Assembly (NCBI GenBank): GCA_964587375.1
Contig: CAZPLE010000113.1
Coordinates: forward strand, 1-38,732
Direction: 5' to 3'
From: an uncultured bacterium
GTDB taxonomy: Bacteria; Ratteibacteria; UBA8468; MWAK01
DNA: 38,732 nucleotides
Position numbers and translations under genes: made by a program. The notes under the pieces were generated by a model. It was not told the origin of the DNA, did not search any database, and saw nothing but the letters and a program-made list of their open reading frames with translations. Positions 816 to 25,665 of this stretch are shown here, piece after piece; the first letter of the stretch is position 1; each line of letters opens with the position of its first letter.

Positions 816-864
816 TTCTTTTTTGCATTTTTCCTATGCTTCAATTTCCCACCAAAAGAGAATA

Positions 865-3657: not shown

Positions 3658-3681
3658 GTTTAACTATTTAAGCAGTAAAAG

Positions 3682-4962: not shown

Positions 4963-4979
4963 AGTGAATTGAATAAAAA

Positions 4980-6992
4980 ATGACCTTATTCCCCAAAAGA
5001 GCCATCCATCTTGATTTCCACACCATGCCGGCCGTCTCTGATGTTGGCCGGGATTTCAAAGCGGAAGAATTTGCTAAAACCCTGAAAAATTCAGGGGTTG
5101 ATTACATTACTGTCTTCGCTCGTTGTAATATAGGGTTTGCCTACTATCCAACCAGAATTGGAATAGTCCATCCCGGCCTGAAAGTGGACCTTTTAGGTGA
5201 AATAGTATCTGCCTGCCATCAGCATCACATACGGGTGGCTGCCTATTTCAATGCTGGGCTTGACCACGAACAGGCTCTCCGGCACCGGGAATGGTGCAAG
5301 GTGAATAAAGAAGGCCAGGTATATGAGATGGAGACGATAAAGCAGGAACGCTACAGCCATTTCTTCCGTAGAATGTGTCTGAATACCGGTTACCGGGAAT
5401 ACCTTCTCGGAATGGTGAAAGAAGTGCTGGAATGGTATCCGGTTGATGGCATTTTCCTGGATTGTTTTACCCTTTCTCCCTGTTATGGTGGGGAGTGTTT
5501 AGAAGAAATGAAGAAACTGGGTATGGACCCCCTGGACGAAGTTCAGGCTACAGAGTTCTGCTGGATGGTAACCAATCGCTTTCGAGAAGACACCACCAAA
5601 TTAGTGAAGAAATCACGGAAAGGTATTTATCTTTACTTTAACGGTCTACCCTATCAGGACCAGCCAGACCATATTGAGATAGAGGTTTTGCCCACCGGCG
5701 GCTGGGGATACGATTACCTACCCTGGGTTATCCGCTATGCTCGCACCTTGCAAAAGCCTTTCTTTACTGTGACCGGTAGATTTCATGAAAGTTGGGGTGA
5801 TTTTGGGGGGATAAGACCAGAACATTCTCTCTTTTTTGATTGTTACTATTCTTTGGCAAATACCGGGACCTGCATGGTTGGCGACCATATGCATCCTCGG
5901 GGAAAGTTGGAACCTGCAGTTTATGATCTGGTCCGGAACGTTTACATGCGGGTTAAAACTTTAGAACCATGGACTTATGGAGCCAGAGCCCGGGTGGAAA
6001 TATTAGTTATTGACCCAGATTTGAAGAGATTCCCTGGAGATCCATATTTTGACTCTACTCATCTTGCCGGGGCAGCCAGAATTCTGACGGAACTAAAATA
6101 TCAATTTAATATCAGTACTGGTGATGAAGATCTTTCCTTTTATCAGGTGGTAATTCTACCAGACAAGGTTCTCATTGATGATAGGTTAAGAGAGAAACTG
6201 CAGAAATACTTAGAGAAAGGAGGTTTTATTATCAGTTCCGCCATTTCCGGGCTGGACTCAAAGAAAAAAAAGTTTGCTCTCAAAGAGTACCGGATTGCCT
6301 ATCAGGGTCCAGAGCCCTATCACTATTCTTTCTTTGAAGCCCTTTCAGAAGTCAGTCAGGATTTACCGAAAATGGTTACTACCATTTACAACCCTGGTAT
6401 TGCGATGGTACCGAAAAAGGGTAGCAAAGTTTTAGCAAAACTTTATCAACCCTATTTTAACCTTAAGTCCTGGGATGGGTGCCATGAGAATTTATATATC
6501 CCCCCGGAAAAAGATTCTGGTCGGCCGGCATTGGTGCGTTGCGGCAACATTTTTCATTTCAGTTTCCCGATTTTCACCAGTTATTATGAACATGCAGTGG
6601 TGGCTTACAAAAATCTGGTTAGAAATTGTTTGAGGCTAATACTTCCCAGACCCCTAATTAGGGTAGAGGGACTACCTTCTTTCGGCCAGGTTACGGTTAC
6701 GCAGAAAGAAAAAGAGACCATGGTTCATATCTTGACCTACCTTCCAGAACTGAGAGGAAAAGAGATGCAGGTTATTGAAGAACCAATCACTGTGAGGGGA
6801 ATAAAACTGGCTTTAAAAGCCGAAGGACAAAAGATAAAGAAGGTTTATCTTGCTCCTTCGCGAAAACAGCTCAAGTTTGATTGGAAAGAAGACTACGTAA
6901 ACGTGGAGGTCCCGGAGGTTGAAGGTTATCAGTTAATTGTCTTTGAGTCTTGCTCACCTGAAAGGCTGATTTCTACAGGAGAGAATAAATGA
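4980..6992 (+). CDS. Putative glycoside hydrolase, GHL6-type TIM-barrel N-domain with a GH42-like middle/trimerisation-type region
   Basis: The N-terminus AIHLDFHT...GVDYITVFARCNIGFAYYPT matches my recollection of the 'hypothetical glycosyl hydrolase 6' family. A Cys cluster CFTLSPCYGGEC is reminiscent of the GH42 zinc site. No signal peptide. Confidence 0.6.
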   Translation: MTLFPKRAIHLDFHTMPAVSDVGRDFKAEEFAKTLKNSGVDYITVFARCNIGFAYYPTRIGIVHPGLKVDLLGEIVSACHQHHIRVAAYFNAGLDHEQALRHREWCKVNKEGQVYEMETIKQERYSHFFRRMCLNTGYREYLLGMVKEVLEWYPVDGIFLDCFTLSPCYGGECLEEMKKLGMDPLDEVQATEFCWMVTNRFREDTTKLVKKSRKGIYLYFNGLPYQDQPDHIEIEVLPTGGWGYDYLPWVIRYARTLQKPFFTVTGRFHESWGDFGGIRPEHSLFFDCYYSLANTGTCMVGDHMHPRGKLEPAVYDLVRNVYMRVKTLEPWTYGARARVEILVIDPDLKRFPGDPYFDSTHLAGAARILTELKYQFNISTGDEDLSFYQVVILPDKVLIDDRLREKLQKYLEKGGFIISSAISGLDSKKKKFALKEYRIAYQGPEPYHYSFFEALSEVSQDLPKMVTTIYNPGIAMVPKKGSKVLAKLYQPYFNLKSWDGCHENLYIPPEKDSGRPALVRCGNIFHFSFPIFTSYYEHAVVAYKNLVRNCLRLILPRPLIRVEGLPSFGQVTVTQKEKETMVHILTYLPELRGKEMQVIEEPITVRGIKLALKAEGQKIKKVYLAPSRKQLKFDWKEDYVNVEVPEVEGYQLIVFESCSPERLISTGENK

Positions 6993-8338
6993 AGAGAAAG
7001 ATTGTCTTGCTGGCAGGATTTCTTTCGTTCATAGCCATCTGGTGGTTTAGGTATTATGGCTTATGGAAGACGAACCCCTCTGGTTCTAATCAGAAAATAA
7101 CGATCGAATTCTTAAACTGGGAGAGTACACCAGAGGGTTCAAAATTTCTGAATAATCTGATAAGGCAATTTGAATCAAAAAACCCTGGCATTAAAGTCAA
7201 AAATGTAGTGATTACCAAAGACTACAATAGAGTTCTTCTGACCAGATTTGCTAGTGGCTCCCCACCGGATATCTTTGAAATCCAGGCGGAGATAATCCAC
7301 CCTTTTTTGAAGAAAAATCTCCTATTAAATCTTTCACCCCTGGTCAAAAAAAGTAAGGTATTGAAGGAGAAAGATTTTTTCCCACTCTCTCTGATAAACT
7401 TTCGATATGATGGTAAAAACTTTCGTCAGGGCGACCTCTATGGTTTTCCGAAAGATTGGGGCACCGGGGTACTTATTTACAACAAGGACCTATTTGACAA
7501 AGAAGGCCTATCCTACCCTGACGGTTCCTGGGGAGAAGAAGAGTATTTAGAAGCAGCCATTAGACTAACCAAAAGAGACCATTCTGGCAGATTAATCCAG
7601 GTCGGAATTGAAAGACCTGTCCATCCATTTTATACGCTTTTGCAGAAAGGCGGAAGAATCTGGAGCCAAGATTACAAAGAGTGCCTCCTGAACAGCCAGG
7701 CGGCAAGAGAGGCCTTTCAGTTTGATTATGATTTAAAAGAAAAGTATCGAGTGGCGCTACGTGAGCAAGAGATTAAAGAAGGTTTAACAGAAAGTTTTGG
7801 TTTCAAAGCAGGTAAGGCCGGGATGAGCCTGGCTTGGAGATATGAACTACCGGATATGATAAAGCACATAAAGTATTTCCGATGGGACGTGGCTCCCTTA
7901 CCTGTGATTGGAGAAAAGAGGGTTCAACTGATGCACGGACCTTCTGGGTGGGCTATCTCGGCAAAGACCAAATACCCTGAAGCCGCCTTCAAATTTTTGG
8001 AATTTTTGGCTGGTAAAGAAGGCCAGATAGAGACCGCAAAACTGGGTTGGAATATTCCTTCCAACCGAGAGATTGCTTATTCCCATTTCTTTTTGAAAAA
8101 CTTGAGAAGAGAAGACTCCGAAAGGATAAATAGGGTTTTTCTTGATGCTATAGACTATCTTGACCCTTCGCTTTTAAATCCCTACTTACCGCTATCCAGG
8201 TTTTACGATATTCTAAACTCAGAACTTGACCCTGAAGTAATCACCAGAAAATATGGAAGAAAGGTCGCACCAGCACTGGAGAGAGCAGTGGAAAGGATAA
8301 ATAAAGAGATTGAGGAGAATCTGGAGGAAAATCTATGA
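6989..8338 (+). CDS. ABC transporter extracellular solute-binding protein (family 1, carbohydrate type), N-terminally membrane-anchored
   Basis: Length and motif pattern are typical of sugar SBPs (KITIEFLNWES..., GFPKDWGTGVLIYNKDLF, GPSGWAIS). The N-terminal hydrophobic segment has no lipobox Cys. Both flanking genes overlap it by 4 nt (ATGA). Confidence 0.85.
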   Translation: MKRKIVLLAGFLSFIAIWWFRYYGLWKTNPSGSNQKITIEFLNWESTPEGSKFLNNLIRQFESKNPGIKVKNVVITKDYNRVLLTRFASGSPPDIFEIQAEIIHPFLKKNLLLNLSPLVKKSKVLKEKDFFPLSLINFRYDGKNFRQGDLYGFPKDWGTGVLIYNKDLFDKEGLSYPDGSWGEEEYLEAAIRLTKRDHSGRLIQVGIERPVHPFYTLLQKGGRIWSQDYKECLLNSQAAREAFQFDYDLKEKYRVALREQEIKEGLTESFGFKAGKAGMSLAWRYELPDMIKHIKYFRWDVAPLPVIGEKRVQLMHGPSGWAISAKTKYPEAAFKFLEFLAGKEGQIETAKLGWNIPSNREIAYSHFFLKNLRREDSERINRVFLDAIDYLDPSLLNPYLPLSRFYDILNSELDPEVITRKYGRKVAPALERAVERINKEIEENLEENL

Positions 8339-9495
8339 AAGAATACAAACTGCCTAACGGTGAATTTCAGAGGCGCTGGCAAAAGGTTCAGGAACGAATG
8401 CACCAAGCCGAGTTGGACGTGCTACTCGTCCACTCAAACGAGGCTGACTTTGCCAATGTGCGGTATCTTTCTGACTACTGGCCTATCTTTGAATCGGCAG
8501 GTGTCCTGATTCCTGCGGAAGGAGAAGCGGCTCTGCTTATCGGCCCAGAAAGCGAAACCTTTGCCAGAGACCGCAGCCGGATTAAAAAGATTTACAAGAT
8601 GATAGAATACCGGGAAAGCGCAGAGCCTGATTACCCGACCATCAAGGTTGATACTTTTGAAGGTATCTTCCGGAAGATGTTCGGAAATAAAAAGATTAGG
8701 AAGGTTGGCCTGGAAGGTTACCAAATCTTTCCCTTACCAATTTACGAAAGTTTAAAAAAAGCCTTGCCATCAGCCGAAATAGTCAAAAGTAACCTTGTCT
8801 CGGATTTAAGGATTATTAAAAGTCCTGCAGAACTGGCCATGCTACAGGAATCCTTCCGCATTTCCGAAATCGCCCTGGAGAACACCATCAAGCAGATCAA
8901 CCCGGATATGACCGAACTGGAAGTGGTGGGCATTATTGAAAAAGAACTCTACACCAATGGCGCCGAATATGAAGCTCATCCTCAGTATGTCCTTGCTGGA
9001 AAGAATTCTACGCACGCTATCGGAAGGCCAGGTTATCAAAAGTTGGGCAAAGGTAGGCTGGTACAACTGAATATTGGTGGCCGAATTGCCGGTTATTCTG
9101 GCAGTGTTGGCCGACCCCTGTGCTTTGGTAAGATGCCCAAAAGGATGCGCCAACTTGTCCAGGCAGGTTTAGACTTACACCAAAAGACTATGGAATGGAT
9201 GAAACCTGGTATTATTGCTAAAGAGATTGCTGAAAAGTTCTTCCGTTATGCCCAAAAGATAGGGGTGGCAAAAAATCTCCTCTATGGTCCCTGCCACGGC
9301 TTAGGTTTGATAGAGGTGGAACGTCCCTGGATGGAATCTCATTCCGACTACCCTCTCCAAGAAAATATGACCTTTCAGGTTGATACCTTCCTTTATACCC
9401 AAGAATTTGGTCTGCGTTGGGAGGATGGCGTTTCGGTCACCAAAGATGGTATACAATCTTTTTCCAATAAATTACAGGAGATTATAGAACTATAG
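8335..9495 (+). CDS. Creatinase/prolidase-fold (M24 family) protein, probably not a canonical metallopeptidase
   Basis: It has a creatinase-type N-domain plus a pita-bread C-domain (GRLVQLNIGGRIAGYSGSVGRP, CHGLGLIEVERP, GLRWEDGVSVTKDG). Two positions normally held by metal-binding Asp read N246 and S257. Confidence 0.8.
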   Translation: MKEYKLPNGEFQRRWQKVQERMHQAELDVLLVHSNEADFANVRYLSDYWPIFESAGVLIPAEGEAALLIGPESETFARDRSRIKKIYKMIEYRESAEPDYPTIKVDTFEGIFRKMFGNKKIRKVGLEGYQIFPLPIYESLKKALPSAEIVKSNLVSDLRIIKSPAELAMLQESFRISEIALENTIKQINPDMTELEVVGIIEKELYTNGAEYEAHPQYVLAGKNSTHAIGRPGYQKLGKGRLVQLNIGGRIAGYSGSVGRPLCFGKMPKRMRQLVQAGLDLHQKTMEWMKPGIIAKEIAEKFFRYAQKIGVAKNLLYGPCHGLGLIEVERPWMESHSDYPLQENMTFQVDTFLYTQEFGLRWEDGVSVTKDGIQSFSNKLQEIIEL

Positions 9496-9499
9496 CTAT

Positions 9500-10411
9500 A
9501 TGGAAAGATTGGTAAGAGTAGTGGTTGGCATTGACGTAGAGACCGATGTAGGTAGTTGGACACCTTACTACCGGGGAGTGGAAGAAGGTCTCCCTAAGCT
9601 TCTGGAAATCTTTGCCCGTCAAAAGGTAAAGGCTACTTTTTTCTTTACCGGAGAGGCAGCGGCAAGATTTCCAGAGAAAAGCAGAGAAGTTATCAAAGCG
9701 GGCCACGAGGTCGGTTGCCACTCCCTTTACCACGAGACAGTGGGTGACCAACTCTTTCCTATCCCAGGGATAAAACCTCTTCTGCCGGAAGAGGTGCCCT
9801 TGAGATTGAAAAGAGCTACCGAAATGGTAGCAGAAGCAGCAGGGACCAGACCGGTCTCTTTCCGGGCACCCAGGCTCTGGGGTAGTACTGTAATGGTTAA
9901 TGCGCTGGAAGACCTCGGTTATGTCGTAGACGCCACCTATCCCCTCTACTACTACCGAAAAAGGCTCTTCCCCTACCACCCCAGCCGAAAAAACTGGCTG
10001 GAGGAAGGCGAAAGTCGTCTTCTGGAAATACCGGTCTTTGCTGACATCACCCAAGAAAGTACCGATCCTTACGGAAGAGATTTGGATCAGTGGCCGGTTT
10101 TTCGGACGAAAGGAGCGGCAGCGCTATTGAAGATGGTCAACAACTTTTTGGGTTATCTGAAAACCCTGGATAACGAAAAATTGAAAGGTAAGATTCCGGT
10201 GCTCTGTTTCTACTTCCATCCCTGGGAGTTCATTTCCCTCCCTAAAAGATATCATTACGGTGAAGGGACCGTCTTGCCTGACCCTTTTACTATCAAGGAT
10301 TGCGGAAAAAAGGCTTGTTATGAACTGGAGGATTTTATCCTGCGTCTTAAAAGGGGATATCGGGTAAACTTTTTGAGCGCCAAAGAACTGGCAGAAAAGT
10401 ATAAGAAATGA
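9500..10411 (+). CDS. Polysaccharide deacetylase (CE4 / NodB-homology) family protein, cytoplasmic
   Basis: NodB-type motifs are present: GIDVETD, HEVGCHSLYHE (H-S-x-x-H) and RAPRLWG. No signal peptide. Confidence 0.8.
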   Translation: MERLVRVVVGIDVETDVGSWTPYYRGVEEGLPKLLEIFARQKVKATFFFTGEAAARFPEKSREVIKAGHEVGCHSLYHETVGDQLFPIPGIKPLLPEEVPLRLKRATEMVAEAAGTRPVSFRAPRLWGSTVMVNALEDLGYVVDATYPLYYYRKRLFPYHPSRKNWLEEGESRLLEIPVFADITQESTDPYGRDLDQWPVFRTKGAAALLKMVNNFLGYLKTLDNEKLKGKIPVLCFYFHPWEFISLPKRYHYGEGTVLPDPFTIKDCGKKACYELEDFILRLKRGYRVNFLSAKELAEKYKK

Positions 10412-10434
10412 TGAAGAATTTAAGATATGGGTTC

Positions 10435-10764
10435 TCAGGGAATACTGGTTGCTTCCTCCAGCCAGGCAAGATAGGGCTGGTAACCAGCAGTAATGGGTAG
10501 GGCAATAATCTCAGGGGTTTGATAGGAATGGAGTTTTTTAACCAAAGCAGCAACCTTTTGAAAATTACTTTCTCTGGTCTTTACTAACAACAAAACCTCC
10601 CGGCTGGTCTCAACCTTTCCCTTCCACCAGAAAAAAGAGTCTATTCCCTTAACCAGATTGATGCAGCCAGCCAATCTTTGAAAAAGGAGTGCCTCCTTAA
10701 TTCTTAAAGCCTCCTTCTGCGAGGAAGCAGAGATTAACACAACGATATACCCGGTCTTTTTCAT
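10435..10764 (-). CDS. cutA: Divalent-cation tolerance protein CutA
   Basis: 109 aa with the typical CutA1 pattern (CINLVKGIDSFFWWKGKVETSREVLLLVKT...HSYQTPEIIALPI). Confidence 0.85.
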   Translation of the reverse strand: MKKTGYIVVLISASSQKEALRIKEALLFQRLAGCINLVKGIDSFFWWKGKVETSREVLLLVKTRESNFQKVAALVKKLHSYQTPEIIALPITAGYQPYLAWLEEATSIP

Positions 10765-10962
10765 TCAATGTTTAGAAAATAGGAGGAGAAATAGGGTTAA
10801 AACCAAACTCAAAATCAGAGAAGTGGTTAGCGGAAAGAAAAAGTGGAAATTGCCGCGGTGGTAAGAAAAATCTCCAGGGAGTCTCCCCAGAGGAACTTTA
10901 TAATTGAGAAGAAGGCCAATGAAAATGAGTGATATTCCAACTGCGATCAATAACCTTGCCAT
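10765..10962 (-). CDS. DUF2905-family small membrane protein
   Basis: 65 aa with two hydrophobic helices flanking LGRLPGDFSYHRGNFHFFFPL, as I recall for DUF2905. It abuts the cutA start directly. Confidence 0.65.
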   Translation of the reverse strand: MARLLIAVGISLIFIGLLLNYKVPLGRLPGDFSYHRGNFHFFFPLTTSLILSLVLTLFLLLFSKH

Positions 10963-11003
10963 CGTCTGTAGATTCCTTGGAAGGAAGATAATTTATTTTA
11001 TTT

Positions 11004-11627
11004 CTAAAGTTTCACCTGGATGGAATCCAAAGCGGTGCGAAACCCAGTTTCATAGCCGGCGAAATCTCTGACTGGAGCCTGACAGATAACCTGAATAATC
11101 TCCCCTTTTCTGATAAAATAGGTTTCTATAGATTTAAAACTTTCTGTCTCCAGCACCAGTTCCACTGCGTCCAAGCTGGAAATCTTTCGTTCTCTTCTAC
11201 TTAAGACCCTGGTTTTTGGAAAATCTTCCGCTTCCTGTAAAAGCCGCACCTCTTCCTCTTCTGTCATGGAAAATACCTTCGGCGCAATCTTTGCCAGTCC
11301 TTTTCCCATACTGAACCAAAGGGATTCAATCTTTTCCAACTGTTGGAGTGATTCATCAACGTATTGAGTAAGGGGCTTACCGCCGGAAGGAAAGTCATAA
11401 ACAGAGATAAAGACCTCATCATTATCCGAAGATTCAAAAAAGTATCGGCCATTTTTAACCATTTTGAAACCGCCTGCCAGTTCGGGTTCACCCTGTTTCC
11501 ATCCCTTAGGCGGCTGGATAGAAAAACCCAACTCTTTGATAGCAAATCGGCTCCTACCACAACCGGAGAGAACGGCTAACGAAAAAGAGAGGAGAAGAAT
11601 TACACACCTTAGAAAAAGTTTGCTCAT
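11004..11627 (-). CDS. Lipoprotein of unknown function (possibly a DcrB/PsbP-like fold)
   Basis: Signal peptide with lipobox LSGC (MSKLFLRCVILLLSFSLAVLSGCG). The track ORF extends to 11663, but the M at 11627 gives a proper signal peptide. The fold assignment is a guess. Confidence 0.55.
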   Translation of the reverse strand: MSKLFLRCVILLLSFSLAVLSGCGRSRFAIKELGFSIQPPKGWKQGEPELAGGFKMVKNGRYFFESSDNDEVFISVYDFPSGGKPLTQYVDESLQQLEKIESLWFSMGKGLAKIAPKVFSMTEEEEVRLLQEAEDFPKTRVLSRRERKISSLDAVELVLETESFKSIETYFIRKGEIIQVICQAPVRDFAGYETGFRTALDSIQVKL

Positions 11628-16185: not shown

Positions 16186-18336
16186 ATGAATGGGGAACGC
16201 TTTCCGGGAATGGAAGGGTTGGAAACAGATAAACGTCCTCCATTGGAACGTTTTACGCGAGACCTAACCGCGCTGGCACGGGCCGATAAATTAGACCCGG
16301 TGATTGGACGCGACCAGGAAATTCGCCGGGTAATCCAGGTGCTCTCGCGGCGCACCAAAAATAATCCGGTGCTGATCGGCGAAGCCGGTGTGGGTAAGAC
16401 CGCCATCGTAGAGGGACTAGCCCAGAGGGTTGCTTCTGGAGATGTGCCGGAAACGCTTAAAAATAAAAGCGTTTTAAGTTTGGATGTAGGTGCGTTGGTA
16501 GCGGGCAGTGTCTTTCGTGGTCAGTTTGAAGAAAGGGTTAAGTCACTTCTGAAAGATATAGAAAAGCAACAGGGAAAGATTATTCTTTTCATAGACGAAC
16601 TTCACACGCTGGTTGGCGCCGGCGCTGCGGAAGGGGCTGTTGATGCCTCCAACCTTCTTAAACCAGCGCTGGCGCGGGGAGAGTTGAGGGCAATCGGTGC
16701 TACCACATTGAATGAATACCGCAAATACATAGAGAAAGACCGGGCGCTGGAACGGCGTTTCCAGCCGATTTACGTGAAAGAACCTTCGGTCAACGACACC
16801 ATCTCTATCTTACGAGGCCTCCGGGAAAAATATGAGGTGCACCACGGAGTAAAGATAAAAGATTCAGCACTGGTTGCTGCTGCCAACCTTTCCAACCGTT
16901 ATATCACAGACCGTTTTCTGCCTGACAAAGCCATTGACTTGATTGATGAAGCTGCCAGCCGCCTGCGTATGGAAATAGATAGTATGCCTGCCCCGTTAGA
17001 TGAAGTAGAACGAAAAATCAGACAGCTGGAAGTGGAGCGACAGGCATTAAAGAAAGAGGCTGAAGGGGTATCTAAAACCAGACTGAATTTGATTGAAACT
17101 GAATTAAAAAAACTGCAGTCCGAAAAGGAAAGAATTCAAAAGCACTGGGAGAAAGAAAAGGAGATCATTCAGAAGATAAGGCACCTGCGTGCGGAGGTAG
17201 AGAAAGGAAGGATTGACGCCGAACGTGCGGTAAGAGAGGGCAATCTGGAGAAAGCGGCCGAACTTAAATATGGAAAACTACCGGAATTGAACAAACAACT
17301 TGAGAAAGCCAGTAGTGAACTGGCGGAGGTCCAGAAAGATATGCGGCTCTTAAAAGAAGATGTGGACGAAGAAGAGATTGCCGAGGTCGTTTCTCACTGG
17401 ACAGGAATCCCGCTCTCCAAAATGATGGAGACAGAAACCGAAAAACTCCTCCATATGGAAGAGCGAATTCACCGAAGATTGGTTGACCAGGACGAAGCGG
17501 TTGCCTCTGTCTCTGATGCTATCCGGCGTAGCCGTTCTGGGCTTTCCGACCCGAATCGTCCGCTGGGCTCCTTCATCTTTCTTGGTCCCACCGGTGTGGG
17601 TAAAACAGAACTGGCACGAAGCCTGGCAGAATTTCTGTTTGACAGCGAAAAAGCACTGGTGCGTCTTGATATGTCTGAGTATATGGAACGGCACACTGTC
17701 AGTCGGCTCATCGGTGCTCCACCAGGTTATGTTGGCTATGAGGAAGGAGGGCAGTTAACCGAAATAATTCGACGCCGTCCCTATTCTGTAATCCTTCTTG
17801 ACGAAATAGAAAAGGCGCATCAGGATGTGTTCAATATCCTCTTACAAATTCTTGACGCGGGAAGGCTCACAGATGGACAGGGAAGGGTGGTGGACTTTCG
17901 TAACAGTATCTTGATTATGACCAGCAACCTCGGTGGAGAATACATTCAGGAGGTGGGTGGCGTAGAAGAAAAAGCCCGTAATCTGGTGCTGGAAAAGTTG
18001 CGCCGCACCTTCCGACCAGAATTTCTCAATAGAATAGACGAAATAATTCTCTTCCACCCATTGGGACAGAAGGAGATTAAGGCAATCATTGACCTGCAAT
18101 TGGAGTATCTTAGGGAGCGCCTTTCAGAAAAACAGATTGAAATAGAGGTAACTGCTCAGGCAAAAGATTATCTTGCCCGAAAGGGCTATGACCCTGTTTT
18201 TGGTGCCCGGCCCATTAAGAGACTTATCCAGCGGGAAATAGAAAACGTCCTTGCCCGAAAACTTATTTCCGGTGAGATTAAAAAGGGCGAAAAGATAACG
18301 ATAGACTCTGATAGCAATAAAATAATCTTTACCTAA
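16186..18336 (+). CDS. clpB: ClpB disaggregase lacking the N-terminal domain
   Basis: It has two AAA+ modules ([16 protein letters not shown]) and a long coiled-coil middle domain. The protein starts at ...[29 protein letters not shown], the NBD1 entry point. AAGGAG sits 7 nt upstream of the ATG, and an in-frame TAA lies at 16153-16155. Confidence 0.92.
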
Positions 18337-18371: not shown

Positions 18372-19154
18372 ATGGAGCTGAAAGATAAGATGGCAGTGGT
18401 AACTGGGGCCGCACAAGGTCTGGGTGAACACCTCTCAGAACGGCTGGTAAAAGAAGGCGCCATTGTCAACCTTTGGGACGTAAGCGAAAAGGTGAAGAAC
18501 ACAGCAGAAAGGATTGCCCAAGCCTTTCCCGGGAAAGCCTTCGGGAAGGTGGTTGATGTTACTAATGAAACCCAGGTAGAAGAGGCAGTACAAGAGATCA
18601 AAAGAAGATGGGGAAGGCTAGAGATAATGGTTGCCAATGCCGGAATTGTAATCGCCCACGAAATTACCGAATTTCCTCTCAGTGATTGGCAGAAGATTAT
18701 TGCGGTAAACCTCACCGGGTACTTTATCTGTGCCCGAGCAGCGGCGCGTATAATGAAGGAACAGAAATCCGGTGTGATTATCCAAATAAATTCCAAAAGC
18801 GGGAAAAAAGGAAGTTATAAAAATAGTGGTTACGCAGCCAGTAAATTTGGTGGCATCGGCCTTACTCAGAGTATCGCCCTGGACCTGGCTCCTTACGGAG
18901 TAAGGGTCAATGCGGTCTGTCCAGGAAACCTTTTAGATTCTCCCCTGTGGCAGGAGAGCCTTTACGACCAGTATGCGAAGAAGTGGGGCATCTCAAAGGA
19001 GGAAGTGCGCAAAAAATATATAGAACAGGTTCCATTAGGACGGGGCTGTACTTACGAAGATGTGGCCAACGTAGTGGTCTTCTTAGCAAGCGAAAAATCA
19101 TCTTACATGACTGGCCAGGCGATCAATGTCACTGGTGGTCAGGAGATGCGGTAA
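18372..19154 (+). CDS. SDR-family oxidoreductase, sorbitol-6-phosphate 2-dehydrogenase (SrlD)-like
   Basis: VVTGAAQGLG, the NAG motif and YxxxK (YAASK) are present. It resembles E. coli SrlD, as I recall that sequence, over IIQINSKSGKKGS..NSGY.A.KFGG.GLTQS.ALDLA.YG and GQAINVTGGQ. Confidence 0.85.
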   Translation: MELKDKMAVVTGAAQGLGEHLSERLVKEGAIVNLWDVSEKVKNTAERIAQAFPGKAFGKVVDVTNETQVEEAVQEIKRRWGRLEIMVANAGIVIAHEITEFPLSDWQKIIAVNLTGYFICARAAARIMKEQKSGVIIQINSKSGKKGSYKNSGYAASKFGGIGLTQSIALDLAPYGVRVNAVCPGNLLDSPLWQESLYDQYAKKWGISKEEVRKKYIEQVPLGRGCTYEDVANVVVFLASEKSSYMTGQAINVTGGQEMR

Positions 19155-19177
19155 GTAATCTTGCGGAGGAAGATAAG

Positions 19178-20293
19178 ATGAAGATTACGGAAAGGGGGCT
19201 AAAAAGACTAAACCAGGAATTTGATGGTTATCTGGAAGGGAAAGCGGTTGAGGAGTTTTTCCAAGAGTTTGATATCAAATTTGCTGCCGGACACTGGTGT
19301 GCTGGAGACTTTTTAGACCGCTTTGCTGTTGGAGGATACCATCCTCACTTAAAGTCTGACATCATAAGTCAATTGGAACGGGTGGCTGCTGCCGGCATCC
19401 AGGGTGTGGAATTTCACGAAAATCTCTTCACTGATAAAAAACGCCAAAGAGATGACCAGCGCATACGAGAAGTAAAGAATGCCTTGAAAAGGTTGGGATT
19501 AACTCCCACCAATATGAATATTAATCTCTGGACCGACCCTTATTGGAAGTTTGGAGGTTTGACCAATCCAGACAAAGGTATTCGGAAAGAAGCGGTTGCG
19601 GTAGCGCTCCAGGGTGCCGAAATAGCCAAAGAGTTAGGATGTTCTTCTGTCTCTCTCTGGCCCGGTGCAGATGGTTGGGACTATAACTTTGAGGCAAACT
19701 ATGGGGTACTCATTAAGTACTTTATAGAAGGTTGCTGTAAAATAAATATGAAGGCGAAAAGGCTGGGGCTCCGTTTTGGTATTGAAGCCAAGATGAAAGA
19801 ACCCAGAGAAGGACATATGGTTGTACCCACTACCCACTGCGCCATCCTGATGGCAAAAAAAGTTAATGAAATCTGTGGTGGTACCAATATGGGTGTGACG
19901 GTGGATTATGGCCACGAAATGATGAATGGCATTGAACCTGCCTTCAGTCTCTACCTGGCAAAAGAGTTCGGTGTTCCGGTAGTCAACTTTCACATTAATG
20001 CCGCTAAGTGGCGATCAAATGATGAGGATCGAGTAGCTGGCACCTCAAATCTATGGGAACTGGTTGATTTTTGCTATGCGGCTCTGGATACTGGCTATTC
20101 TGGCTGGTTTGGAGAGGACCAATTTACCTATCGGATGGATCCGGTGAAGGCGATGTCCCTGTCGCGAGAGTTCTTCGCTAACATAATGAAGAAGGCCCTC
20201 CTTATTTGGAAGAAGAGAGCAAACCTCTCTGCTGCCCAGCAGACTGGTGATGCAGGTAGAACGCTTGAGGTGGTAAAGAAGATTCTCTTCTAA
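19178..20293 (+). CDS. Xylose-isomerase-like TIM-barrel sugar isomerase (divergent, class-I XylA-like)
   Basis: The ATG at 19178 is preceded by GGAGGAAG. The track ORF's upstream 77 codons overlap the SDR gene in another frame. By-eye alignment to class-I xylose isomerase covers FAAGHWCAGDFLDRF, GVEFHE, RFGIEAKMKEPRE, VDYGHE, FHIN, NDEDR and GYSGWFGEDQ. Confidence 0.75.
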   Translation: MKITERGLKRLNQEFDGYLEGKAVEEFFQEFDIKFAAGHWCAGDFLDRFAVGGYHPHLKSDIISQLERVAAAGIQGVEFHENLFTDKKRQRDDQRIREVKNALKRLGLTPTNMNINLWTDPYWKFGGLTNPDKGIRKEAVAVALQGAEIAKELGCSSVSLWPGADGWDYNFEANYGVLIKYFIEGCCKINMKAKRLGLRFGIEAKMKEPREGHMVVPTTHCAILMAKKVNEICGGTNMGVTVDYGHEMMNGIEPAFSLYLAKEFGVPVVNFHINAAKWRSNDEDRVAGTSNLWELVDFCYAALDTGYSGWFGEDQFTYRMDPVKAMSLSREFFANIMKKALLIWKKRANLSAAQQTGDAGRTLEVVKKILF

Positions 20294-20300
20294 AAGAGAG

Positions 20301-22004
20301 ATGGCAACTCCAAAAAGGTACAGCCTGGGTCTTGATTTCGGAACAAACTCTGTGCGGGCGCTCATCATTAACCTTTCCGAAGGCAAAGAGGTGGCCAGTT
20401 CCATCTGGAATTACCGGCGGGGGAAAGAAGGTATCATTACCTTGCCTGACAACCCCCACCTGGCGCGTCAGCATCCAGCGGATTACATTGAAGGGACAAT
20501 GGAATCTGTCAGGAGAGTGTTAAGATTAGCAAAGAAGAATGAGCCCGCCTTCTCTGCGCAGAATATCATTGGAATCGGAGTGGATACTACCGGAAGCACC
20601 CCTATACCAGTTGACGCTGCTGGCCAGCCGCTGGCTTTTGACAAAAGGTTCCATCAGAACCCTAATGCCCTTGCCTGGCTCTGGAAAGACCATACTTCTG
20701 CAGAAGAAGCGGAAGAGATTACCGAAAAGGCACAAAAAACCCACCCAGAGTATTTGAAGCGCTGTGGAGGTCGTTATTCCTCAGAATGGTTCTTTGCCAA
20801 GATTCTCCACCTTGCTCGCACCGACCCAGAGGTTTATAAAGCTAGCGTCAGCTTCGTAGAACTTGCCGATTTTATCCCGGCTCTTCTTACCGGCAATCTG
20901 GTCCCTCATAGAATCTTGCGTAGCATATGTGCTGCTGGCCATAAAGCCCTTTATTGCCGCAGATGGAACGGCCTGCCCTCAGAAGAATTTCTCGCTTCCC
21001 TTGACCCTCAGTTAAAAGGATTAAGGAAACGTCTTTATGAAAAGGCGTATCCTGCTGGTAAAAGGGCAGGTGGCCTCTGTAAAGAATGGGCAAAGAGGTT
21101 GGGTTTAAAAGAAGGGATTGCGGTAAGTGTGGGTGCCTTTGATGCTCATATTGGAGCAGTAGGAGCAGGCATAAAAGAGAGCGGATTGGTAAAGGTGATC
21201 GGAACCTCCACCTGCGATATGATGGTCTTTCCAATGGCAGAGGAGTCAAGATTGGAAGAGATTGAGGGTATGTGTGGTCTGGCAGAAAGTTCCATTATCC
21301 CCGGTTTAATAGGGTTAGAAGCCGGACAGTCTGCGGTAGGGGACATCTTTGCCTGGTTTGTCAAAAATTTGGTGCCGGAAAGATACGTACGGGCCGCACG
21401 CAGATACAAAATAGCGCTCCAGACTTACCTCAGTAAAAAAGCCTCGCTTCTCCAACCCGGTGAGGCTGGACTTTTAGCCCTTGACTGGAATAACGGTAAT
21501 CGTTCCCTTCTTGGGGACCAGAAGCTCACCGGACTATTGGTTGGGCAGACGCTGGCTACCAAACCAGAAGAGGTTTACCGAGCACTGATTGAAGCCACCG
21601 GATTTGGTGCTCGGATAATCATTGACCGAATTGAGGAGTCAGGAGAAAAGATCTCTGAGATTATCACCTGTGGAGGTATTCCTAAAAAGAACCCGCTCTT
21701 GATGCAGATTTACTGCGACATCTTCAATCGCCCCATCAGGATTGCTGCTTCTGACCAGACCTGTGCCCTGGGCGCGGCTCTTTTTGGCGCAGTGGCTGCC
21801 GGTAAAAGAGCTGGCGGTTTCGCCGCCATCTCCGAAGGCCAAGAGATCTTTTGTCGGTACGAAAAAGATGAGTATCGTCCCAACCCGAATTGTGCCGCTA
21901 TTTATCAGAAATTATACCGACTTTACCGGCAGTTGCACGACGCCTTTGGAAGGCCAGAAGGCTCCCTCTTTTCCATAATGAAGGAACTTTTGAACCGTGA
22001 CTAA
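20301..22004 (+). CDS. araB: Ribulokinase (FGGY family, AraB-like)
   Basis: At 567 aa it is close to E. coli AraB's 566. The N-terminus YSLGLDFGTNSVRALII...HPADYIEG parallels AraB IGLDFGSDSVRA...HPRDYIES. FGGY C-terminal motifs are present. Confidence 0.85.
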   Translation: MATPKRYSLGLDFGTNSVRALIINLSEGKEVASSIWNYRRGKEGIITLPDNPHLARQHPADYIEGTMESVRRVLRLAKKNEPAFSAQNIIGIGVDTTGSTPIPVDAAGQPLAFDKRFHQNPNALAWLWKDHTSAEEAEEITEKAQKTHPEYLKRCGGRYSSEWFFAKILHLARTDPEVYKASVSFVELADFIPALLTGNLVPHRILRSICAAGHKALYCRRWNGLPSEEFLASLDPQLKGLRKRLYEKAYPAGKRAGGLCKEWAKRLGLKEGIAVSVGAFDAHIGAVGAGIKESGLVKVIGTSTCDMMVFPMAEESRLEEIEGMCGLAESSIIPGLIGLEAGQSAVGDIFAWFVKNLVPERYVRAARRYKIALQTYLSKKASLLQPGEAGLLALDWNNGNRSLLGDQKLTGLLVGQTLATKPEEVYRALIEATGFGARIIIDRIEESGEKISEIITCGGIPKKNPLLMQIYCDIFNRPIRIAASDQTCALGAALFGAVAAGKRAGGFAAISEGQEIFCRYEKDEYRPNPNCAAIYQKLYRLYRQLHDAFGRPEGSLFSIMKELLNRD

Positions 22005-22665
22005 ACTAAACAATTTAAAAAAAGAGGTGCTGAAAGCAAATATTCTTCTCTGGGAGTGGGGATTGGTGGTGGGAACTCAGGGAAATGTCAGCGGGTATGA
22101 CCCAGCAAGTAATCTGGTGGTAATAAAACCCAGCGGTCTCCCCTACTCTGCCTTGAAAATAGAGGATTTGGTTACGATTAACTTAGAGGGAAAGGTGGTA
22201 GAAGGCAAAAGGAAACCTTCCGTTGATTGGCCACATCACATCTATATTTATAAAAAGATTTTTGGTATCACTGGAATTGCTCACACACATTCTCCTTTTG
22301 CCACCGCTTTTGCCACCGCTGGTCTTCCTATTAAGTGCTTGACCACTGGTCAGGCAGATATCTTTGGAGGAGAAATTCCCATTACCCCTTATGTAGATAA
22401 TAAGGAAGACTATATTGGGCAAGCCATCGTGAAGGGATATCGTTCGCACTGTCCGGCTGTCCTTCTGCAACAGCATGGTCTATTTACTTTTGGTGAAGGC
22501 CCTTACCAGGCAGTGCTCTCAGCCAGATTTACGGAGTATTTTGCTCAGATTAATCTCTTTGCTATTCTTCTGGCAAAGACCTTCCATAAGAACCTTATGC
22601 CCCTATCACAAGAAGAGATAAAAAAGTGGTATGAAAGGTATCACGGAGGCGGTTATGGGCAATAG
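21997..22665 (+). CDS. araD: L-ribulose-5-phosphate 4-epimerase (class II aldolase fold)
   Basis: GNVSGYD, VIKPSG, HTHSPFATAFA and LLQQHGLFTFG are present. The GTG start overlaps the araB stop. Confidence 0.88.
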   Translation: MTKLNNLKKEVLKANILLWEWGLVVGTQGNVSGYDPASNLVVIKPSGLPYSALKIEDLVTINLEGKVVEGKRKPSVDWPHHIYIYKKIFGITGIAHTHSPFATAFATAGLPIKCLTTGQADIFGGEIPITPYVDNKEDYIGQAIVKGYRSHCPAVLLQQHGLFTFGEGPYQAVLSARFTEYFAQINLFAILLAKTFHKNLMPLSQEEIKKWYERYHGGGYGQ

Positions 22666-23755
22666 GGTTCAAATGAGATATCAAACCCGCAAAAACTATA
22701 ATGAACGGTCAGATAATTTCTTAAGAGCCGTAGAATTCTGTCATCCAAAATGGATACCAGCCAATATCGGTATTCTGCCAGCCACCTGGTACCATTACGG
22801 AGAAGAACTGGAAAAGATTGTTCTAGAACATCCCCGACTCTTTCCCGACTATAAAAAAGGTGATTTTCAAAATCTGAAGCCATGCTGGGCATATCAAAAA
22901 GGTCGGCACAAAGATATTTGGGGGGTAACGTGGGAGAATATTGCGGAGGGTTTTGACTCTGCCCCAGTGGAAGAAGAGGCGCCCCTAAAAGAGTGGGAGC
23001 CACTGGAGAAGTTCACACCCCCTGACCCACTAAGCACCGACTGGTTCTGGCCAGAGGAAAAGATTGACTGGGAGACTCGCCGAAAAGAATTAGACGAGGC
23101 AAAAGCCAAAGGGAATATTGCGCAGTGTGGTTTACCCCACGGGTTTATCTATATGTGGCATTATTATCTGCGGGGGTTTTCCAATTTTATGATGGATGTT
23201 GCCACTCATGAACCCCGTCTACAAAAGATTACAGAAATGATCTTAGATTACGACCTAAAATTGGTGAAAAAGTGGCTGGAGATTGGTGTTGAACTTATCT
23301 ATTTTGGGGACGACTTAGGTCTGCAACGGTCTCTGCCAATCAGCCCTGATGATTGGCGATGGTTGATAAAACCCAGTTATCAAAAAGTCCTGAATTTGTG
23401 CCAGCAGGCAGGAGTACTGACCTATCTTCATTCTGATGGTCACATCTTAGAGGTCATAGATGACCTGATAGAATGTGGTCTCAACATCATCAATCCTCAG
23501 TTTCGGGCTAACGGGTTGAATGGTTTGGCGCAGTTTAAAGGGAAAATATGTATCCATCTAGGAATGGATAGACAATTGTTTCCTTTCGCCACGCCAGGGC
23601 AATTGTGGGAACATTTCCAACAATCCCTGGAGGCTCTCTATCTGCCTGAAGGTGGGTTGATGTTCCATGTGGAGATTGGACCAGATGTCCCTCTTTTAAA
23701 CGTGGAGACAATCTTTAATATTCTGGAAGAGTTAGCCGGCCCCTGGCACGGCTAA
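22655..23755 (+). CDS. Uroporphyrinogen-decarboxylase (URO-D) fold family protein of unknown function
   Basis: The C-terminal half (IYFGDDLGLQRSLPISP..., LTYLHSDGHILEVIDDLIECGLNIINPQ) fits the URO-D/MtaA-like TIM-barrel pattern. The ATG at 22655 has GGAGG 5 nt upstream; the track ORF starts at 22631. Confidence 0.65.
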   Translation: MGNRVQMRYQTRKNYNERSDNFLRAVEFCHPKWIPANIGILPATWYHYGEELEKIVLEHPRLFPDYKKGDFQNLKPCWAYQKGRHKDIWGVTWENIAEGFDSAPVEEEAPLKEWEPLEKFTPPDPLSTDWFWPEEKIDWETRRKELDEAKAKGNIAQCGLPHGFIYMWHYYLRGFSNFMMDVATHEPRLQKITEMILDYDLKLVKKWLEIGVELIYFGDDLGLQRSLPISPDDWRWLIKPSYQKVLNLCQQAGVLTYLHSDGHILEVIDDLIECGLNIINPQFRANGLNGLAQFKGKICIHLGMDRQLFPFATPGQLWEHFQQSLEALYLPEGGLMFHVEIGPDVPLLNVETIFNILEELAGPWHG

Positions 23756-23769
23756 AAAGAAGGTTGAAA

Positions 23770-24789
23770 ATGGAAAAAGTCAAAGTAGGGATTGTAGGTG
23801 GAGCTGGTTATACAGGCGCTGAATTGCTAAGATTGCTGGTCAATCACCCCGGCGTGAAGATAACGATGGTTACCTCAGAAACTCTTTCCGGCAAAAAATT
23901 GTGTGAGGAATACCTGAACCTTAAAGGCAAGACTGAGCTTATATTTGAACCGTATGAAAAAGAAGAGGTGACCAAAAGATGTGAGTTTGTTTTTCTGGCA
24001 AAACCACATCCGAACTCTTTTAAGCTGGTGCAGGAACTTTTTGGTAAGGTGCGGATTATTGACCTTTCTCCTGATTTCCGATTTTCCGATGGAGAAGAGT
24101 TTAAACGTCTCTATCAGACTCCTCACCTTGCTCCAGAGTTTCTAAAGAAGAGCGTCTATGGATTAAGCGAAATCTTTAGCCAAAAGATTAGAGAAGCAAA
24201 CCTGGTTGCCAATCCCGGTTGTTATCCTACAGGCATTATCCTGGCGGTCTTTCCGCTGGTGCAGGCGGAGATTGTGACCGAAGAGATAAATGTCAGTTCC
24301 ATCTCCGGTTTTTCTGGTGCAGGCCGTACCCCCTCTCCTAACAATCTGGCTTATTTTGTGGTGGACAACATCCGCCCTTATCGCATCGGTAACCATCCCC
24401 ACGGCGCTGAAGTGGAGCAGATTCTCAGAAGAGCGACTGGCAAAGGAGTAAAGGTAAATTTTGTGCCGCAGGTTGCTGGATTTGAAAGGGGTATATTGAA
24501 CGTCATCTTCCTTCATTTAAAAACCAACGTTGGTGAGGAAGAACTCTTCTCTCTTTATCAAAAGACCTATCAGAACGCTCCTTTTTTGCGCGTCTATTGC
24601 GCTGGCACGTTTCCGGAAATTAAAAATGTGGTAATGACCAATTATTGTGACCTGGGTTTCAAAAGAATGAACGACCGTGTCCTTCTGATAATTTCCTCTT
24701 TGGATAATCTGGTTAAGGGCGCTGCCGGTCAAGCAATCCAGAATTTAAATATTATGGTGGGCTTTCCAGAAGAGACGGGATTAGTATAA
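23770..24789 (+). CDS. argC: N-acetyl-gamma-glutamyl-phosphate reductase
   Basis: VGIVGGAGYTGAELLRLL, the active-site motif NPGCYPT and the C-terminal DNLVKGAAGQAIQN are present. The ATG at 23770 follows AAGAAGG. Confidence 0.92.
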   Translation: MEKVKVGIVGGAGYTGAELLRLLVNHPGVKITMVTSETLSGKKLCEEYLNLKGKTELIFEPYEKEEVTKRCEFVFLAKPHPNSFKLVQELFGKVRIIDLSPDFRFSDGEEFKRLYQTPHLAPEFLKKSVYGLSEIFSQKIREANLVANPGCYPTGIILAVFPLVQAEIVTEEINVSSISGFSGAGRTPSPNNLAYFVVDNIRPYRIGNHPHGAEVEQILRRATGKGVKVNFVPQVAGFERGILNVIFLHLKTNVGEEELFSLYQKTYQNAPFLRVYCAGTFPEIKNVVMTNYCDLGFKRMNDRVLLIISSLDNLVKGAAGQAIQNLNIMVGFPEETGLV

Positions 24790-24801
24790 ACTTAAAAGAT
24801 T

Positions 24802-25665
24802 ATGAAGATTACCGCCCAAACCAAGGTAGTTGCCCTCTTTGGCTATCCAGTAACACATACCCTTTCGCCTCTATTTCAAAATGCAGCCTTTAGGGCTGCC
24901 GGTGTTGATGCGGTTTACCTCGTCTTTGAAATTCCCCCACTTCTCCTAAAAGACGCCATTAAGGCAGTGAAAGATTTAAATTTCCTCGGAGCCAATCTCA
25001 CCATTCCTCACAAAGAAACAGCCCTTCTTTTTCTGGATGAAGTATCAGAAACAGCATCCCGGATTGGTTCGGTTAACACGCTTGTCAACCATTCTGGAAT
25101 ACTGAAGGGAGAGACGACCGATGGTCCGGGGTTTTTGCTCTCTTTAAAAGAGAAGGGAATTAACCCAAAGTTAAAAAAGGTTTTACTGGTTGGTGCCGGT
25201 GGTGCAGCCAGAGCGGTCGCCTTTGCTCTTGTTAAAGCAGGTGCCTCCGTAACTATTACCAACAGGACCGCGGAAAGGGGCGAAAAACTTGTCTCTGACT
25301 TAAAGAGATACTATCCCCAGACGGAAGCGGAATTTGTTCCTTTTTCGGAAAAAACCACTTTCTTGAAACGAAAAGATTATGACATTTTAATCAATGCTAC
25401 TTCCGTGGGCTTAAAAAAGGGTGAAACCCTTTTCCGGAGCAGCGACCTACCAGAAAAGATTGTCGTTTGCGACCTAATCTACCATCGGAAGACAGAACTC
25501 CTTGCTGCCGCAGAAAAACGTGGCTTAACCACCATTAGCGGATTGGGCATGCTGGTCTATCAAGGTGCTCTTTCCTTTCGCCTCTGGACCGGTAAGCCTG
25601 CTCCTTTAAAAATTATGTTTTCTGCTCTCAAAAACCAATTGAGATCTAAAGCATATCTTTTATAG
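24802..25665 (+). CDS. aroE: Shikimate dehydrogenase
   Basis: GYPVTHTLSPLFQNAAF, NLTIPHK, NT.. and the Rossmann motif GAGGAARAV are present. Confidence 0.9.
   Translation: MKITAQTKVVALFGYPVTHTLSPLFQNAAFRAAGVDAVYLVFEIPPLLLKDAIKAVKDLNFLGANLTIPHKETALLFLDEVSETASRIGSVNTLVNHSGILKGETTDGPGFLLSLKEKGINPKLKKVLLVGAGGAARAVAFALVKAGASVTITNRTAERGEKLVSDLKRYYPQTEAEFVPFSEKTTFLKRKDYDILINATSVGLKKGETLFRSSDLPEKIVVCDLIYHRKTELLAAAEKRGLTTISGLGMLVYQGALSFRLWTGKPAPLKIMFSALKNQLRSKAYLL

Follow-up and report, generated by a model that had tools for sequence, protein, structure and literature searches.

The L-arabinose operons araBAD of Escherichia coli and araABD of Bacillus subtilis are the closest described counterparts of the gene cluster reported here, which occupies positions 18372-23755 of a contig from an uncultured bacterium of the Ratteibacteria. 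This contig (CAZPLE010000113.1, contig C113 of the assembly) was analysed over its whole length of 38,732 nucleotides and is referred to as the window; the assembly (GCA_964587375.1) comprises 1.23 Mb in 144 contigs and is 85% complete. The L-ribulokinase (AraB) and L-ribulose-5-phosphate 4-epimerase (AraD) of the cluster belong to the same families as those of the two operons, and the isomerase-kinase-epimerase order is that of B. subtilis, where abfA lies within the operon much as arabinofuranosidase genes do in relatives of the window. In contrast to both systems, the window encodes no AraA-family protein, the first step being assigned to a TIM barrel of family PF01261; no AraC or AraR and no AraE, AraFGH or AraNPQ is encoded nearby, and two extra genes are present, for a short-chain dehydrogenase/reductase (SDR) and for a protein with the uroporphyrinogen decarboxylase (URO-D) fold. 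The five genes are, on balance, probably an L-arabinose catabolic module placed between clpB and argC, in which the xylose isomerase (XI)-like barrel replaces AraA non-orthologously. Replacement of AraA by an uncharacterised and very widespread isomerase family would be a new variation on the known arabinose pathway. The features of the locus are as follows.

18372..19154, + strand, SDR of the SrlD type, labelled 'sorbitol-6-phosphate dehydrogenase' (NF009050, PDB 5o3z)
19178..20293, + strand, XI/RhaI-like two-metal aldose-ketose isomerase, 371 aa (PF01261, ATG start)
20301..22004, + strand, L-ribulokinase AraB, FGGY family (NF003154, TIGR01234)
21997..22665, + strand, L-ribulose-5-phosphate 4-epimerase AraD, class II aldolase fold (best NCBIfam matches, residues)
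22631..23755, + strand, URO-D/MtaA-fold TIM-barrel protein (PF01208; probable start 22655)
16186..18336, + strand, clpB, upstream border of the insertion site (Pfam AAA_2, ClpB_D2-small)
23764..25665, + strand, argC and aroE, downstream border of the insertion site (Pfam Semialdhyde_dh, Shikimate_dh)

The layout of the five open reading frames (ORFs) agrees with an earlier note made from the sequence alone: they are co-directional, with intergenic gaps of 23 and 7 nt and overlaps of 8 and 35 nt at the remaining junctions, the last of which shrinks to 11 nt with the URO-D-fold gene start at 22655 used in public gene calls. A longer, GTG-start ORF of the isomerase gene runs from 18947 and overlaps the SDR gene, and is an unlikely alternative start. 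The family assignments that the note had made for all five genes also hold in Pfam and NCBIfam searches.

The order isomerase-araB(-araD) recurs in seven species-level loci spread over two isomerase clades (the window, L001, L002, L004, L005, L020 and L044), the contig of L020 ending inside araB. The close Omnitrophota relatives L001 and L005 carry clpB-SDR-isomerase-araB-GH51-GH127-araD-argC on a single strand. Their GH51 protein has an alpha-L-arabinofuranosidase C-terminal domain (PF06964, 179.5 bits) and their GH127 protein a beta-L-arabinofuranosidase catalytic domain (PF07944, 390 bits), and in L005 an additional small PF01261 gene (291 aa) lies beside araB. As far as predicted functions go, these two glycosidase genes between araB and araD in two Omnitrophota are the decisive evidence for L-arabinose as the substrate. 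The order is SDR-isomerase-araB-araD-argC in L002, clpB-isomerase-araB-araD-UROD-argC-aroE in L004 and isomerase-araB-araD in L044, and from this comparison of gene orders the conserved core is isomerase-araB-araD only. The earlier note had treated all five genes as one set expected in related genomes; the core stands, but the whole unit does not, as the SDR gene is adjacent in four loci and the URO-D-fold gene in two, and to that extent the five-gene proposal fails.

No match to AraA_N (PF02610) was found at E <= 0.01 in the window or elsewhere in the 1.23 Mb, 85%-complete genome, which bears out the note's araB-araD pair without araA and speaks against an araA ortholog elsewhere in the assembly. 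AraA_N is also absent from 24 of the 25 other genomes carrying the XI-like isomerase; the lone exception is a weak 34-bit match in a 696-aa ORF of G004, the genome of the AraB-linked locus L004. Neither a class II XylA scoring over its cut-off nor a RhaA (PF06134) was found in 16 isomerase-carrying genomes. The host genome has one copy only of the XI-like isomerase, the kinase at 20301-22004 is its sole AraB-type kinase, and two split transketolases are encoded outside the cluster. Because arabinofuranosidases lie within the cluster of relatives, canonical isomerases are missing and transketolase provides a sink, an L-arabinose pathway is the simplest reading.

In the pathway proposed, L-arabinose would be set free in the relatives by the in-cluster GH51 and GH127 arabinofuranosidases, and the XI/RhaI-like isomerase, we infer, would convert the free sugar to L-ribulose. 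AraB, assigned to its family at the equivalog level, would then form L-ribulose-5-phosphate, AraD, with its catalytic residues conserved, would form D-xylulose-5-phosphate, and this product would enter the pentose-phosphate pathway via the split transketolases. The SDR would be accessory, probably interconverting a pentulose or hexulose phosphate and a polyol phosphate, and the URO-D-fold protein would be a second accessory gene product. Of the three routes that the earlier note had considered, the one in which the XI-like enzyme feeds AraB is supported by the seven recurrent loci, the lack of AraA and the in-cluster arabinofuranosidases of L001 and L005.

The kinase has the Pfam domains PF00370 and PF02782 (FGGY_N, FGGY_C) and passes both ribulokinase equivalogs (NF003154, 680.7 against a cut-off of 428; TIGR01234, 598.4 against 583.25). 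The best NCBIfam matches of the AraD protein are all to L-ribulose-5-phosphate 4-epimerase, and the FucA models score lower (99 bits). Alignment to E. coli AraD (1jdi) shows that Asn28, Lys42, Ser44, Gly45, Asp76, His95, His97, Asp120 and His171 are kept, together with the KPSG of the phosphate site, and GGYGQ at the C-terminal end places a YGQ motif where Tyr229 is expected. The residue roles given in the AraD structure papers are those of Asp76 as a metal ligand (Glu in FucA), of His95, His97 and His171, of Lys42-Pro-Ser-Gly as the phosphate site, and of Asp120 and Tyr229. From its residues, this class II aldolase-fold protein is predicted to be an epimerase-type AraD.

The XI-like protein matches only PF01261 in Pfam (84 bits) and falls below the cut-offs of every XylA and RhaI model in NCBIfam, scoring 91.6 against 447 with TIGR02631 (xylA_Arthro, class I XI), 60.7 against 531 with TIGR02635 (RhaI) and 43.1 against 647 with TIGR02629 (Pseudomonas stutzeri type). 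It has no match to TIGR02630 (class II XylA) at E <= 0.01 and none to the UlaE/SgbU models of NCBIfam. In an alignment with Actinoplanes XI, equivalents of Trp16, His54, Trp137, Glu181, Lys183, His220, Asp255 and Asp257 are retained; Glu217 is replaced by Asp, the Asp245 position is His or Asn, and Asp57 is unconserved. The window protein has the two metal sites as well as the ring-opening His and the catalytic Lys. Among 81 family members there are 102 near-invariant positions, which include the XI-equivalent residues (W40, H80, W161, E203, K205, D243, H246, H272/N274, D282, D284 and D314). The AlphaFold model has a pLDDT (predicted local distance difference test) of 90.8 and gives TM-scores of 0.79 with P. 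stutzeri L-rhamnose isomerase (L-RhI), 0.77 with 3ktc and 0.74 with class I XI; no 3-epimerase is near the top of the structural matches, 3cqi lying outside the top 50. Because the metal-site residues are kept and the model matches isomerases, not 3-epimerases, the protein is assigned from sequence and model as a two-metal aldose-ketose isomerase and not as a UlaE/SgbU-like epimerase.

P. stutzeri L-RhI (PDB 2hcv and others), which has broad specificity, is the best functionally known structural match, although identity is 22-23% and the window protein is about 60 residues shorter. The ligand pattern of the window protein, E-x-K ... D-x-x-H ... H ... D-x-D ... D, presumably fits the L-RhI type. 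Class I XI of Actinoplanes and Streptomyces has the fold and the metal and catalytic residues in common with the window protein, but the C-terminal arm differs. The closest solved sequence is PDB 3KTC, the putative sugar isomerase ECA1953 of Pectobacterium atrosepticum (1.3e-34, 29% identity), which has DQF and GH motifs in common with the window protein; at 333 aa it falls in a neighbouring family of about 325 aa and is itself uncharacterised, and therefore no function can be transferred from it. L-Arabinose and D-xylose are C4 epimers, and weak turnover of L-arabinose by class I XI is known. Since the two sugars differ at C4 only and class I XI has this weak activity, the activity predicted for the window protein would be chemically unremarkable.

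Homologs of the isomerase, 55-82% identical, occur across bacteria (Omnitrophota, Ratteibacteria, TA06, KSB1, Desantisbacteria, Elusimicrobiota, Chloroflexota, Planctomycetota and Armatimonadota/Fervidibacter) and archaea (Thermoproteota, Bathyarchaeia, Brockarchaeota and Nitrososphaerota). Clustering a library at 50% identity leaves the family with one full-length representative; outside it come one relative at 41% and, further off, the 3ktc-like proteins of about 325 aa (30-37% identity). Different sources label family members xylose isomerase, L-rhamnose isomerase, sugar phosphate isomerase or D-apiose isomerase, the last on one homolog, P0014. Literature searches found no biochemical characterisation of the family, and nothing bearing on it was found under Omnitrophota plus ribulokinase, non-orthologous L-arabinose isomerase, or apiose isomerase.

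Neighbouring genes were called and clustered at 83 isomerase loci. The commonest neighbour is an FGGY kinase, immediately downstream of the isomerase in 22 of the 83, followed by a class II aldolase/epimerase (22/83). The partner kinases are of three types, XylB-like, rhamnulokinase (RhaB)-like and AraB. Archaeal loci combine an XylB-like kinase with a FucA-like aldolase, often with a GH29 fucosidase, a HAD and an OCD-family gene, and some have a rhamnulokinase-like second kinase. Chloroflexota loci have a rhamnulokinase-like kinase and an aldolase with an aldehyde oxidoreductase, a zinc-dependent alcohol dehydrogenase (Zn-ADH), an SDR and an ABC transporter. These resemble the RhaI-RhaB-RhaEW rhamnose pathway, reportedly described in Actinobacteria and Chloroflexi by Rodionova and colleagues in 2013, in their rhamnulokinase-like kinase, class II aldolase, SDR and ADHs; the partners in the window differ, being AraB and an epimerase-type AraD and not an aldolase. 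The AraB-type partner is found in the window, L001, L002, L004, L005, L020 and L044. In a maximum-likelihood tree the kinase type tracks the isomerase clades. The window isomerase falls in a fully supported clade of six (Omnitrophota, TA06 and Ratteibacteria) with a long stem of 0.44, five of whose six members are AraB-linked, and AraB linkage appears again in a separate part of the tree, in Nitrospirota L044 and L020. Four substitutions are specific to the window clade (N213H, D291N, I303L and Y344W), and three of these, N213H, D291N and Y344W, fall at otherwise invariant positions.

Some isomerase loci have other features. On L081/L082, a contig probably from Armatimonadota, genes for a LacI regulator, a small PF01261 barrel and an oxidoreductase of the GFO/IDH/MocA type precede the isomerase (8105-11128), and 8 kb away another PF01261 barrel is found together with a URO-D-fold gene (19484-21128). 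A 97-aa ORF with a GIY-YIG-like N-terminus (YVYIL...G.LY.G.T) lies between the SDR and isomerase genes in L001 (9637-9930) and upstream of the isomerase in L003 (132-425), and may be a small mobile-element remnant at the cluster.

The SDR passes the sorbitol-6-phosphate dehydrogenase equivalog NF009050 (371.7 against 307), and its best PDB match by far is 5o3z, SrlD of the E. coli/Erwinia type (4e-71; the runner-up has about 150 bits). Orthologs 74-78% identical lie directly upstream of the isomerase in L001, L002 and L005, and each of the six genomes of the window isomerase clade has an ortholog, which adjoins the isomerase in four loci. No SDR is adjacent at L004, L044 or L020, and G006 and G007 have no ortholog anywhere. 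More widely, orthologs of 65-82% identity are common and uniformly labelled sorbitol-6-phosphate dehydrogenase. Unlike SrlD, the window SDR has no sorbitol phosphotransferase system (PTS) context (srlAEB): no PTS permease genes were found near it or near its orthologs in L088-L090, and in many uncultured phyla its orthologs (65-70% identity) are in sugar loci without a PTS. These orthologs adjoin Zn-ADHs, class II aldolases, other PF01261 barrels, a PHP-like protein and URO-D-fold genes. A role as a RhaW-like lactaldehyde dehydrogenase, considered for the orthologs beside class II aldolases, was rejected, as the aldolase-fold gene of the window is of the epimerase type and a better RhaEW-like SDR is present on host contig C138. 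An Elusimicrobiota metagenome contig (L090, 6794-11747) carries a Zn-ADH, an SrlD-like SDR 67% identical to that of the window, a 439-aa PHP-like protein without a Pfam match, a class II aldolase and a URO-D-fold gene; this set is another recurring uncharacterised sugar module and has two gene families in common with the window cluster.

The URO-D-fold protein matches PF01208 over its C-terminal half only (26.6 bits against 23.9) and scores 17-21 bits with the MtaA models, whose cut-offs are 235-400; it is placed in neither the HemE nor the MtaA equivalogs. Its model (pLDDT 95) finds MtaA and HemE as the best PDB matches in Foldseek (TM 0.59-0.64), and the fold search gave just HemE, MtaA and MetE, at 10-14% identity, with no functional lead. 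The family has invariant His, Asp and Glu residues, including an H259-x-D261 motif, and no invariant Cys; it lacks the MtaA zinc motif, His-x-Cys ... Cys. Homologs with 50-70% identity lie beside sugar ABC transporters and glycoside hydrolases, and a 44% identical paralog heads a LacI/GFO/transketolase operon on host contig C28. Seven family members were found by tblastn in the 1.23 Mb genome. The URO-D-fold gene follows araD in two loci only, the window and L004 (47% identity), and its contexts suggest that the protein appears to be a sugar-metabolism enzyme that is accessory and not part of the core pathway.

Several points weigh against an L-arabinose module. Because the isomerase family is extremely conserved and has three kinds of partner kinase, its substrate cannot be read from sequence; the enzyme may act on several sugars, or mainly on xylose or rhamnose. 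L003 and L019 have the isomerase but no araB-araD at the site, and AraD scores below its NCBIfam cut-offs (210.7 against 251 for NF005123 and 171.9 against 389 for TIGR00760). The pathway leaves both the SDR and the URO-D-fold gene without a role, neither a transporter for arabinose nor a regulator was identified, and every function in the module is a prediction. In the host genome a FucI-family isomerase is present on contig C83, the GH51 gene on contig C140 is broken across three reading frames and no GH127 was found; the host may rely on other organisms for free arabinose, or the assembly may be at fault. The xylose or rhamnose possibility can be put more specifically: the XI-like enzyme would serve unlinked XylB or RhaB-like kinases and L-ribulose would come from another enzyme. 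The labels xylose and L-rhamnose isomerase given to the family by several sources fit this, as do the XylB-like kinases of archaea, the RhaB-like kinases of Chloroflexota, the loci L003 and L019, and the host itself, which has a true XylB xylulokinase (561 bits, contig C83) and a rhamnulokinase-like kinase (contig C64) and no canonical XylA or RhaA; in Brockarchaeota, where XylA and XylB are counted among the pentose genes, the enzyme has been read as XylA (PMC8065059). We nevertheless regard it as unlikely, given that the AraB-carrying genomes offer no other L-arabinose isomerase candidate, that araB immediately follows the isomerase in seven loci from two independent clades, that L001 and L005 have arabinofuranosidases within the same operon, and that the window clade combines its long stem with N213H, D291N and Y344W. 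A broader proposal, which we hold only tentatively, is that the isomerase is a new, tightly conserved and promiscuous class spread by horizontal gene transfer through many uncultured phyla of bacteria and archaea, one copy of which, in a streamlined genome like that of the host, feeds AraB, XylB and the RhaB-like kinase and so replaces AraA, XylA and RhaA together.

The remaining alternatives give the neighbours of the isomerase a larger part. E. coli AraB phosphorylates L-arabitol and ribitol, and the earlier note had considered a polyol oxidised by the SDR to a ketopentose; the SDR could oxidise a pentitol (L-arabitol or ribitol), or its kinase-made 5-phosphate, to L-ribulose or L-ribulose-5-phosphate for AraD. 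The position of the SDR gene at the head of the cluster, its conservation with the cluster across the window clade and its SrlD (polyol-phosphate) type would suit such an entry, which we consider improbable: isomerase-araB(-araD) occurs without an adjacent SDR in L004, L044 and L020, G006 and G007 lack an ortholog, the arabinofuranosidases of L001 and L005 indicate a free aldose substrate, and elsewhere the orthologs are part of rhamnose-like loci, next to ADHs, class II aldolases and other TIM barrels. The ketopentose step is thus unnecessary, and an SDR of the sugar-phosphate type does not suggest it. An FGGY kinase, a PF01261 barrel and a class II epimerase also formally resemble lyxK-sgbU-sgbE, and the extra PF01261 gene beside araB in L005 could be added to that likeness; in such an L-xylulose/L-lyxose route, likewise raised in the earlier note, the kinase would make L-xylulose-5-phosphate, the barrel would be an SgbU/UlaE-like 3-epimerase and AraD would act as 4-epimerase. 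This is very improbable, since the barrel has 371 aa against about 285 for UlaE/SgbU, keeps the second metal site that 3-epimerases lack (the His220, Asp255 and Asp257 equivalents), matches no UlaE/SgbU model and is closest in structure to isomerases, and the kinase is an L-ribulokinase equivalog; for the barrel itself the second metal site and the fold rule out a 3-epimerase. Least probable of all is an anabolic or redox-valve role, in which D-xylulose-5-phosphate would undergo epimerisation and reduction, giving a pentitol phosphate that either goes into an envelope polymer or serves as an electron sink. It would account for the placement of the cluster in a housekeeping array with no regulator or transporter and no more promoter or terminator signal than chance, and the SDR is of the sugar-phosphate reductase type, but a kinase and an aldose isomerase would be superfluous in that direction, the arabinofuranosidases of the relatives speak for catabolism, and the cluster contains no nucleotidyl- or glycosyl-transferase.

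The L-arabinose module proposed here is embedded in a 13-kb co-directional array of housekeeping genes, with trpS, hisC, cdaA, pdxJ and clpB upstream and argC and aroE downstream. No transporter or regulator was seen among these flanking genes, as the earlier note had stated, and the nearest solute-binding protein (6989-8338) is part of a separate glycoside-hydrolase/glycan operon (138-10411). Counts of sigma-70-like promoters and intrinsic terminators between 11.5 and 26.5 kb equal those of shuffled sequence, and no operon borders could be defined. The synteny clpB-[cluster]-argC-aroE is shared by the window with L001, L002, L004 and L005, and on the argC/aroE side it is kept in L001-L005. 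ClpB of the window (16186-18336) has 716 aa and begins shortly before the first AAA module, so that, judging by its length and start, it apparently lacks the N-terminal substrate-binding domain; the orthologs in L001, L004 and L005 have 712-734 aa.

Other contigs of the host genome (G000) carry further sugar genes. On C83 (L100, 3681-8035) XylB is divergent from a methyltetrahydrofolate:corrinoid methyltransferase-like gene and the gene for the FucI-family isomerase, a distant three-domain member (164 bits against a cut-off of 775). The GH51 alpha-L-arabinofuranosidase gene at C140:2467-3947 (L102), whose product is 49% identical to the in-cluster GH51 of L001 and L005, consists of three ORFs in three frames and is either a decaying gene or an assembly error. 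The minus strand of C138 (L116, 460-3957) encodes an LsrF-like thiolase (NF006081, 490 bits) followed by an SDR, a class II aldolase and a Zn-ADH. The SDR matches the C-terminal half of the bifunctional aldolase/SDR of the RhaEW type (417 bits), and the split aldolase/SDR pair may be likened to RhaEW; together the genes resemble a RhaEW-type deoxy-sugar back-end that has been split, and the contig carries neither an isomerase nor a kinase. In all, the genome has 11 PF01261 genes and the seven URO-D-fold paralogs, a striking share for 1.23 Mb, and both families occur together on C58.

Two loci in related genomes contain other XI-like proteins. L113 (G001, C66:1500-9000) encodes a RuBisCO-like protein (RLP; MtnW/OiaX-like), an FGGY kinase resembling rhamnulokinase, an XI-like paralog of 342 aa that has 29% identity to that of the window, and subunits resembling pyruvate dehydrogenase E1 alpha and beta, and is reminiscent of RLP-dependent branched or acid-sugar pathways. 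In L115 (G005, C31:19000-25500) a 346-aa class-I-XylA-like protein (213 bits, below the cut-off) lies beside a levoglucosan-dehydrogenase-like GFO/IDH/MocA enzyme and an IolE-like barrel, and this may be a 3-keto-glycoside or anhydrosugar locus.

The isomerase family lies between XI and the broad-specificity L-RhI, both industrial enzymes. Such enzymes are used in high-fructose syrup production, pentose fermentation and rare-sugar synthesis. Members of the family include thermophilic ones from archaea and Fervidibacter, and a characterised member with L-arabinose, D-galactose or D-xylose activity would have practical value. If the L-arabinose assignment is true, L-arabinose use would have been overlooked in many metabolic reconstructions based on metagenome-assembled genomes, because pipelines look for AraA, and the family would provide a clean case of one conserved isomerase plugged into three kinase/aldolase back-ends.

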